Made by a program: the position numbers and the translations under genes
Assembly: GCA_964016885.1 (NCBI GenBank)
Contig: OZ024743.1
Location: 47,740,001-47,804,000 of the forward strand
Direction: 5' to 3'
DNA from: Eledone cirrhosa
Lineage: Eukaryota
Length of the DNA: 64,000 nucleotides
Shown here: one piece after another, positions 39,979 through 41,479 of the stretch
How the letters are laid out: every line of letters starts with the position of its first letter
Numbering within the stretch: the first letter of the stretch is position 1
The notes under the pieces: generated by a model
Seen by the model: the letters and a program-made list of their open reading frames with translations, nothing else
Database searches by the model: none
What the model was told of the DNA's origin: nothing

Positions 39979-40625
39979 GAGAGAGAGAGAGAGAACCTTT
40001 AATACTGAGAAACACTGTCTCACAGAGAAAAAAAAAAAAACGTTGTAAGATAATACATCATTTAAAAAATTAAGAAATTATAAGTTAATGAGGTTTATGA
40101 ATGGTGATGCTTATGATTAAAGAAAAAGGAATTAAGAATACTATTTATTTAAGGTTTATATATTGAAGAGTTTAATAAGATGTGCGAAAAGGAATTTATT
40201 AAAATGTATTATTAAAATAAAATATATTAAGAAGATAAGGTGAATGAAGATAAGATTAAATGAATTATGAACTTAGAGGAATTAATTAGGGTCCAAGTTT
40301 GTTTCTATATATTGTAATAGAAAAAAGTAAATAATAAATTTGTTTCTACGTTAGGCACAAGGCCAGCAATTACCCAGTGTATTACTGGTACTTTAAGTAA
40401 ATAATAGATTTAATACGAGCACGGAAGGAGAGAGGAAAGAAAAAATTCAAGGAAGAAAAAATATATAACGTCAAAAAAATATGTATATATATATGCAAAA
40501 GTTCTATTTAAAATTGTTGGGATACAACAAGTAAATATTTTTATAACTGATATAAAGCACTCGACAAGTTTTTGGAGTAGATATACGATATTAAAAAATG
40601 GAAATTATATTTATAAAACCATATT

Positions 40626-40690
40626 TATTTCATTATACATATTTCAGGGATACCACATTAAATTATGGTATGCCTTCATCAGACAAAATA
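40626..40690 (-). ncRNA. Minimal hammerhead ribozyme (type B)
   Basis: Reverse complement of 41092-41156. Confidence 0.8.
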
Positions 40691-41091
40691 CAATATATAA
40701 CAGTTTTACAAATAGCTTTGACGTACCCTTTTAAAATGCAACCATTACTTTTGGAGGCTGTCTGGATAGTGATTTGTTTATATTATTTTAATAAGTCATA
40801 GTGTTAAGCACAATTTTTTTTTTTTTTTTTTTTTTTTTTTTTAAATTTCCTCCTATCTTTATTTATCTCTTTCTTTTCTCCATACATTTCTCTCTCCGAT
40901 ATTTCTCCAGGTTTTCTTTCTCTCTCTCCGTCTTTTTTCTTTTTTTCTTTCTCTCCATCTTTTTCTAATTGTGCTTAACACTATGACTTATTAAAATAAT
41001 ATAAACAAATCATTATCCAGACAGCCTCCAAAAGTAATGGTTGCATTTTAAAAGGGTACGTCAAAGCTATTTGTAAAACTGTTATATATTG

Positions 41092-41156
41092 TATTTTGTC
41101 TGATGAAGGCATACCATAATTTAATGTGGTATCCCTGAAATATGTATAATGAAATA
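41092..41156 (+). ncRNA. Minimal hammerhead ribozyme (type B)
   Basis: Stem I tattttgt/atgaaata; CTGATGA; stem II aggcataccata/tgtggtatccct; GAAA-tatgta-TA. Confidence 0.8.
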
Positions 41157-41479
41157 AATATGGTTTTATAAATATAATTTCCATTTATTAATATCGTATA
41201 TATATATATATATATACATATTTTTTTGACGTTATATATTTTTTCTTCCTTGAATTTTTTCTTTCCTCTCTCCTTCCGTGCTCGTATTAAATCTATTATT
41301 TATATATATATATATATATATATATATATATATATATATATATATATATATATATATATATATATATATACATATATATATATATATATATATATTTAAA
41401 GGTTAAACAAGGTTCAATGAATAAATCAAAGAATGAGTTTTACAATAGATTGGAAGATTGAGTATGTCATGCATCATCT

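Follow-up and report, generated by a model that had tools for sequence, protein, structure and literature searches.

A doubly nested hairpin with opposed hammerhead motifs in Eledone cirrhosa: probably two Penelope-like 3' ends joined head to head and framed by a local duplication

The locus described here lies in a 64,000-nt window of the Eledone cirrhosa assembly GCA_964016885.1 (contig OZ024743.1, positions 47,740,001 to 47,804,000, forward strand; all coordinates below count from the first letter of the window). It raises the question of how a long hairpin with a hammerhead motif in each arm, itself enclosed by a second inverted pair, came to be formed, and whether the whole is one element. 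The doubly nested hairpin is a real sequence feature of the assembly, totals 905 nt (40398-41302) and is built as follows, together with the tract on its right.

40398-40494, plus strand: left outer arm X, corresponding in antisense to part of the 3' region of family A, with an additional (TA)5 tract at 40484-40493
40495-40577, minus strand: one-sided tail of family B, 83 nt, on the left arm only
40578-40815, minus strand: inner left arm B1, an inverted, 5'-truncated pseudo-LTR of family B
40814-40842, plus strand: T29 run at the head-to-head junction, into which the terminal TT of the left arm merges
40843-40966, plus strand: pyrimidine-rich spacer, the upstream portion of the 3' region of family B, retained by the right arm alone
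40967-41204, plus strand: inner right arm B2, a pseudo-LTR without tail, ending at the first end point of family B
41197-41216, plus strand: (TA)10 tract between arm B2 and the right outer arm
41206-41302, plus strand: right outer arm X', an exact inverted copy of the left flank
41301-41395, plus strand: long (TA)n tract, likely the original target

The dimensions given in an earlier note, made from the letters alone, hold up on measurement. Its near-perfect inner arms of about 235 bp are 238 nt each, 99% complementary and separated by 151 nt, its tail of about 80 bp on one arm only (40500-40580) is the 83-nt segment at 40495-40577, its enclosing inverted pair of about 90 bp is complementary at 97 of 97 nt (about 10 nt of them (TA)n), and its poly-T/pyrimidine spacer is a T29 run followed by a pyrimidine-rich stretch up to 40966. 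Two internal substitutions separate the inner arms (40769/41013 and 40595/41187), while a third difference (40580/41202) sits at the outer edge, where pairing of the arms stops. The absence of an open reading frame could also be confirmed, since frames in the fold-back reach no more than 67 codons when started by ATG and 106 codons from stop to stop. Taking the evidence below into account, we consider it likely that the inner pair represents two head-to-head 3' ends of a very abundant hammerhead-bearing repeat, likely one dead-on-arrival Penelope-like insertion into (TA)n, and that the outer pair is a copy of local Penelope sequence, probably made by fold-back copying.

Hammerhead motifs were located with a descriptor consisting of CUGANGA, stem II, GAAA, stem III, UH and a stem I of at least 5 bp, applied to both strands of the 64 kb. 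It matched six times, always between 36741 and 41546, and had no match in any of 200 dinucleotide shuffles of 36001-42000. Three of the matches lie in or beside the fold-back.

40626-40690, minus strand: hammerhead motif B1 of type I, predicted to be cut between 40634 and 40633
41092-41156, plus strand: hammerhead motif B2 of type I, predicted to be cut after 41148
41399-41590, plus strand: hammerhead-bearing 3' end of family C, motif at 41480-41546

Motifs B1 and B2 lie on opposite strands, both pointing outwards, and arm B2 ends 53 nt past its predicted cut; all three families (A, B and C) end 43-53 nt past theirs. The presence of a hammerhead motif in each arm, as claimed in the earlier note, is thus upheld, whereas the label 'type-B' has to be replaced: the topology is type I with a 6-nt palindromic stem III, 'type-B' is to our knowledge not a recognised hammerhead class, and no such class was met in the Penelope and hammerhead literature examined. 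Rfam returned no hammerhead match, neither at gathering score nor at E values up to 10, where its eight weak matches were to snoRNA and microsatellite-driven miRNA models; a degenerate hammerhead pattern searched in metagenome contigs had no matches either. The motif of family C lies on the strand of B2, has the stem III of B2 and is predicted to be cut 390 nt from it. A double hammerhead formed by B2 and C in cis was considered for this 390-nt piece and rejected: we take the pairing as chance, since the stem III duplex is weak (-4.2 kcal/mol, compared with -12.5 kcal/mol for A with A) and since the piece contains X' and the long TA tract.

What would happen to a transcript of the locus was addressed by folding predictions. 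The earlier note had expected one ribozyme per transcript of either strand, folding into long double-stranded RNA in competition with cleavage. One motif per strand is indeed present, and a full-length transcript of either strand is predicted to form one long duplex of about -525 kcal/mol; the competition is predicted to be no real contest. On both strands the antisense arm is transcribed ahead of the ribozyme-bearing arm, so that the ribozyme is predicted never to fold in a run-through transcript, and the predicted probability of stem I is 0.0 in the four transcripts containing the whole opposite arm. For isolated fragments of 79-85 nt, stems I and II are predicted to form for A2 (a family A copy, see below) and B2 and not for C. 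With flanks, family B gave predicted stem I probabilities of at most 0.11 in all 16 transcripts, those lacking the antisense arm included, and folding therefore lends no support to an active monomer. Hammerheads with short palindromic stems are described as cleaving poorly and as acting as dimers or requiring a second ribozyme (PMC4209133, PMC6765202, both as excerpted). Ribozyme cleavage at the fold-back would, on these models, be unlikely: a run-through transcript would form long double-stranded RNA in which the ribozymes would stay unfolded.

Sequencing data allowed family B to be followed beyond this locus. Four of eight sequencing runs (X1, X4, X5 and X6) were compared with 38800-41302 at 85% likeness, of which X1, X4 and X5 are assembled contigs of a kind not on record and X6 consists of raw RAD reads under the same species label. 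The comparison left out 41189-41302, and reads are cut at 40806-40877. Of 85 joints, 1252 loose ends, 426 variant sites and 29243 pieces, the rows listed and used here comprise 15, 24, 40 and 24, respectively. In run X1 the depth amounts to 9.1e5 over the tail, 1.0e6 over the 3' end of the arm, 2.5e4 over its 5' part, 1.5e3 over the spacer and 7.0e3 over outer arm X, where summed depth is not equal to copy number, single listed X1 contigs having a depth of 7-21. Since the depth of the tail resembles that of the arm 3' end and far exceeds that of the outer arm, the 83-nt tail can be assigned to family B. The spacer is multi-copy as well (depth 1663 at 40888 in run X1), with a length variant also seen in X4. 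The 40-fold fall of depth towards the 5' side of family B reflects in part diverged subfamilies and not truncation alone; one such subfamily is marked by a loose end behind 40697 (4349 reads).

Both ends of the fold-back's inner unit recur in these data. At the tail-less end, 5588 reads of run X6 depart at 40581 (mirror base 41201) into (AT)n. At the tailed end, position 40483 is A instead of G in 195787 of 196154 depth of run X1 and in 960 of 983 reads (156 starts) of run X6, as expected if tailed copies enter a longer TA tract rather than outer arm X. Both end points being used by other copies, which run into (TA)n there, the ends of the fold-back are the two normal ends of family B. Three further head-to-head joins occur among the rows listed: a 391-nt contig of run X1 (record 6), in which a tail-less arm from 40581 stands opposite a tailed arm, and two joints in run X6 (40531 to 41067 with 78 reads and 2 starts, 40512 to 40749 with 63 reads and 1 start). 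At 40605/41177 both inner arms of the fold-back carry a minority base, from which about 96% and 94% of the run X1 depth differs, pointing to one source for both arms. The arms of record 6 diverge unequally from the fold-back copy (30 versus 2 differences), so that a single source is not general to all pairs.

No contig or read among those listed spans the fold-back's own junctions, and the window letters at the private bases 40434, 40169, 40081 and 39465 have no depth in run X1; the locus is therefore known from the assembly alone. This circumstance, together with outer arms that are 100% identical and adjoin a long TA tract, is what an assembly or long-read chimera of the fold-back or of its outer pair would predict. 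We regard such a chimera as very unlikely, since a mirrored read would have duplicated tail and spacer too. Here, two substitutions separate the arms, thousands of reads from other copies break off at the point where the tail-less arm ends, and the spacer consists of family DNA and is asymmetric.

The design of the fold-back, an inverted pair with a tail on one side, had been read in the earlier note as Penelope architecture, and this reading is borne out. The typical Penelope insertion, according to PMC8557442 and PMC3846280 (as excerpted), has an inverted, 5'-truncated copy and carries a tail at only one of its ends, and the tail seen here is a feature of family B as a whole. No family B copy with an ORF occurs among the records listed, and Penelope membership therefore rests on non-coding features: a putative type I hammerhead with short palindromic stem III, the inverted 5'-truncated copy, an optional, family-wide one-end tail and dispersed copies ending on (TA)n. 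The further suggestion of a Penelope architecture that lacks coding sequence stands as far as the ORF is absent; the loss looks like 5' truncation, with no sign of a dedicated non-coding element.

A related view would make family B a non-autonomous, retrozyme-like Penelope derivative that never had an ORF and was moved by Hydra-clade enzymes, the fold-back being one inverted insertion of it. A depth of about 1e6 over the last 250 nt that drops to 1.5e3 in the spacer fits such an origin, and both non-autonomous elements forming pseudo-LTRs and Penelope-derived retrozymes are published (PMC8557442; bioRxiv 10.64898/2026.07.22.740005, in the parts consulted). However, ORF-bearing family A has an equal 50-100-fold 3' peak of depth, and the window contains no B units in head-to-tail tandem, the arrangement by which retrozymes are marked. 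We thus hold a non-autonomous origin to be rather unlikely, and it would alter only the master copy of family B, not the formation of the fold-back. The retrozyme as a candidate for the fold-back itself was rejected, the B copies being opposed and B2 and C, while on one strand, belonging to separate families. Animal non-LTR retrozymes (bioRxiv 10.64898/2026.07.22.740005; PMC7229834, as excerpted) resemble the fold-back in being non-coding, Penelope-related and equipped with type I hammerheads, and differ in forming head-to-tail tandems with two same-strand ribozymes per cycle, in contrast to the head-to-head fold-back with one ribozyme per strand.

The preferred reading, truncated ends of a Penelope-like family, gains context from the adjoining element, family A (36617-40483), whose decayed reverse transcriptase plus GIY-YIG part at 36855-38877 had gone unmentioned in the earlier note.

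36617-36862, minus strand: inverted 5' pseudo-LTR A1 with hammerhead 36811-36741 and an 89-nt tail that ends on a 104-nt (TA)n tract
36855-38877, plus strand: decayed, 5'-truncated Penelope ORF, apparently of the Hydra clade, with reverse transcriptase (RT), CxC linker, GIY-YIG-like end and two in-frame stops
38878-39260, plus strand: local inverted duplicate of 39573-39976, replacing about 16 nt directly after the ORF and containing pseudo-LTR A2, hammerhead 39094-39164, (TA)5 and 51 nt of X
39261-39623, plus strand: 3' untranslated region Y of the Hydra-like ORF, ending in the outer-arm source copy 39535-39623
39624-40324, minus strand: inverted family A 3' region, made up of the tail-less pseudo-LTR A3 with hammerhead 39739-39669, ending on (TA)5 at 39624-39633, and the upstream pyrimidine-rich region
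40325-40406, minus strand: 58-nt fragment of a very high-copy short repeat, splitting the family A 3' region and flanked by a 12-nt target duplication (40325-40336 and 40395-40406)

The 5' end of family A, an inverted pseudo-LTR plus tail on a TA tract, has the design of the fold-back with the ORF still attached, and the tails of families A and B are alike, their alignment being equalled by 5 of 2000 shuffles. The ORF is 34-38% identical to four full-length proteins (P0001-P0004, best E 5e-114) and contains an RT followed by a C-terminal GIY-YIG-like domain, with no cysteine pair between the two core strands (no CCHH). Pfam assigned no family to three pieces of the ORF and gave only a weak GIY-YIG match for the homologue P0001 (E 0.012). 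The CxCX5C linker and the CxxC and CxH motifs are intact in all four homologues and partly decayed in the window copy, from which 5' truncation has removed the N-terminal RWK and DKT motifs; DKT is found in 4 of 4 homologues and RWK in three, P0001 having RWR. By eye, the region behind the RT matches the Hydra rows in the consulted part of the supplement to PMC8557442, and family A appears to fit a Hydra-clade Penelope-like element as defined in that paper.

An asparagine- and serine-rich insert of about 70 residues precedes the CxC linker (38230-38450), resembling the asparagine-rich inserts described for rotifer Penelope elements (PMC3846280, as excerpted). As a further observation, the stem II loop of the A2 hammerhead is flipped relative to A1 and A3, so that all three read alike on the plus strand (approximately 39122-39130, 39702-39710 and 36774-36782), which could be either a micro-inversion inside a hairpin or a polishing error. 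Run X5 (organism B) contains families A and B, plus the A tail as a loose end. Run X4, whose kind is not on record, has family B at 0.03-0.2 of the X1 depth (40480-41067) and family A at about 0.003-0.006 (39640-39975), a tenfold or larger excess of B over A that is not readable as expression.

Read joints restore the order of family A as ORF, Y, X', upstream region, pseudo-LTR and tail. The joint from 40324 to 40395, which skips 70 nt with 12 letters fitting either side, is found in run X4 and in 27 reads of X6; the joint from 38877 to 39276 is found in run X4, and run X1 has a loose end at 38877. At this locus the 3' part of family A is inverted in place, with X duplicated at the break. The outer pair, which the earlier note had included in the element, has to be taken out of it: the outer arms duplicate sequence from the 3' region of neighbouring family A, as the joint from 40324 to 40395 reveals, and they are local duplicates rather than element termini because the read joints place X inside family A. 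Sequence X occurs four times at the locus, at 40398-40494, 41206-41302 and, overlooked earlier, at 39210-39260 and 39535-39623. At the 40434 site all four copies have G, whereas the depth listed for X1 and X4 is A throughout. Depth is even, from 5.7e3 to 2.5e4, across Y, X and the family A upstream region. A MITE-like fold-back element of 905 nt with 97-nt terminal inverted repeats, to which the perfection of the outer repeats would be well suited, can hardly be reconciled with these data. X has no depth step at its edges, lies 130-fold below the adjoining tail and runs into family A sequence on either side in other copies; moreover, the private base is common to the four X copies, other B copies enter (TA)n and not X, and the flanks differ without target duplication. 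A MITE or fold-back DNA transposon was rejected as a known system on the same grounds, namely X being internal to family A, other B ends joining (TA)n and the flanks differing.

How a local duplicate came to enclose the B pair can be pictured in several ways. The perfection of the outer arms does not decide the order of events: 0 differences in 90 nt is expected with a probability of 0.46 at the inner-arm rate, and divergence can therefore not order outer-arm and B-pair events. The X copies break within 1-2 bases of one point (39623, 40398, 41302 and 39210), which lies a few bases from a small hairpin of the short-repeat insert, within the insert's 12-nt target duplication, and which may be a cut or stall site. 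The outer arms could have come first, if a rearrangement of family A had left a palindrome X-(TA)n-X' and the B pair had then inserted at its TA-rich centre. X at 40398-40494 indeed forms the inner end of the inverted block of family A, X' ends on nearly the same base in both places (39623 and 41302), suggesting one event, and TA tracts are the target of the family. Against this order, an extra step would be required to make a perfect palindrome ahead of B, fold-back along the B arms yields an equal product from parts at hand, and sequence divergence cannot separate both orders. We consider an earlier palindrome entered by B somewhat doubtful, and nearly as likely as fold-back copying primed at TA tracts, which is our best guess for the origin of the outer arms at about even chances.

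The course that we favour for the whole locus would then be the following. A Penelope-type reverse transcriptase and endonuclease would have cut the TA tract next to X and primed a pair of outward-facing cDNAs, the left-arm cDNA beginning at the tail end and the right-arm cDNA at an internal start 53 nt past the ribozyme cut. Both cDNAs would have stopped early, after about 320 and 390 nt, and would have been joined at the T run; no ORF would have been copied because both stopped early. With about even chances, the strand ending in (TA)n could subsequently have snapped back along the inner arms with the tail looped out and paired with the left (TA)5; from there it would have copied about 87 nt of the left flank before rejoining the long TA tract. 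The two cDNAs are proposed because the Poseidon protein of Anolis carolinensis cuts and extends both strands in vitro, with two RT start sites that define its tail (PMC11167929, as excerpted). Head-to-head pairs may alternatively arise by self-priming on an antisense template (excerpts of PMC3846280), a route that is conceivable here too, although the spacer at the centre of the fold-back is asymmetric and a palindrome is missing there. No relevant literature account was found of fold-back extension at insertions of retrotransposons.

It is also conceivable that the outer arms are a footprint of Penelope integration itself, both cDNAs being primed from the same end of the target strand, so that an inverted duplicate of the flank arose in place of a direct target duplication. 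The locus would show this twice: (TA)n-X' terminates both B arms, A2 and A3 both end on an identical (TA)5-X junction, and in other family A copies the site of this junction has no TA tract. We regard this footprint as unlikely. Were it true genome-wide at Hydra-clade insertions, inverted flank duplications with added TA linkers would be a new signature with a bearing on how inverted pseudo-LTRs arise, and octopus genomes would contain perfect long hairpins of such origin in very large numbers.

The combination of two cDNAs and fold-back copying, to which we keep, can be set against described systems, all quoted here from excerpts of the sources. With the endonuclease-positive Penelope-like insertion unit (PMC8557442; PMC3846280) the fold-back shares head-to-head inverted pseudo-LTRs, a tail at one end, strong 5' truncation, a hammerhead in the pseudo-LTR and insertion among other copies. 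It differs in its tail (83 nt, and 89 nt in family A, compared with the published 30-40 nt), in having no ORF and no short target duplication visible in the TA tracts, and in the added 97-nt inverted copy of the left flank. Hydra-clade elements are described with (TA)n targets and hammerheads, the Octopus family Hydra-1_Obim being listed (PMC8557442); for Penelope-13_HM, the supplement of that paper records an inverted 5' copy together with hammerheads on both strands. The neighbouring ORF layout, the (TA)n targets and the hammerheads resemble this clade, while the family A 3' region is, at about 1.1 kb, longer than in the listed Hydra families. The fold-back hammerheads differ from the Hydra-1_Obim motif in an 8-bp AU-rich stem I and a 6-nt palindromic stem III, and because of this difference from the listed Octopus motif the octopod families found here are probably unlisted. 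For octopod hammerhead motifs of this kind, the literature searched, outside Repbase and Dfam, gave only one Hydra family (excerpts of PMC8557442), and a 2026 Octopus vulgaris repeat paper contains the word hammerhead zero times. Poseidon (PMC11167929) likewise has two 3' end points downstream of its hammerhead and AT-rich targets, and its cutting and extension of both strands in vitro parallel the course proposed here. It differs in that its tail overlaps the ORF start, while no ORF start follows the pseudo-LTR here, and its priming proceeds without homology, in contrast to the ends here, all of which lie on TA tracts.

To the right of the fold-back follow the long TA tract and then family C; the region as a whole is a pile of Penelope ends in TA tracts. 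The HscB gene starts at 42601, is 88-90% identical to HscB of Octopus sinensis and has its start codon 1.3 kb downstream of the fold-back. At 42040-42110, about 550 nt before this start codon and 750 nt right of the fold-back, lies a motif which we take to be ETS-like and which may mark the HscB promoter. No host gene enclosing the element in an intron was found, 0 of 40 frames (of 71) having a Pfam match in a scan that left out HscB, an Ig-domain exon, presumed retroelement debris and several overlapping frames; frame 16636-17079 had no usable match in the Atlas, and a tRNA scan found none. The frame 12458-13018, with a single exon, a signal-like start, one Ig domain and a hydrophobic end, likely encodes a host membrane protein. 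Elsewhere in the window, a 61-nt tandem array (60173-64000) runs past the window end, its unit recurring inside dispersed repeats (19720-19784 and 59542-59606). Nearly pure (TA)n of about 2 kb follows an RTE-type element (3011-4969), and an open LINE-type ORF of 980 codons with endonuclease, RT and a PHD-finger match occupies 50639-53581 on the minus strand, with related fragments at 1534-3048, 7418-9176 and 20751-22458. Older, imperfect palindromes (70-86%) without hammerhead matches at 33870-34103, 35623-35947, 36025-36374 and 50123-50244 are possibly decayed MITEs.

The fold-back is thus explained by known Penelope behaviour plus local duplication, and for the most part represents an insertion pattern that is ordinary and has been described before. 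Most likely the locus is inert debris, or at most a passive source of double-stranded RNA. What is gained are probably unlisted, very abundant hammerhead-bearing Penelope families of an octopod and, outside lizards, one clear example of the two-end-point rule for tails. Cephalopods are known for heavy A-to-I editing, and the weight of the finding would rise if many such insertions turned out to have inverted flank duplications, or if hairpins of this type were transcribed and edited in bulk.
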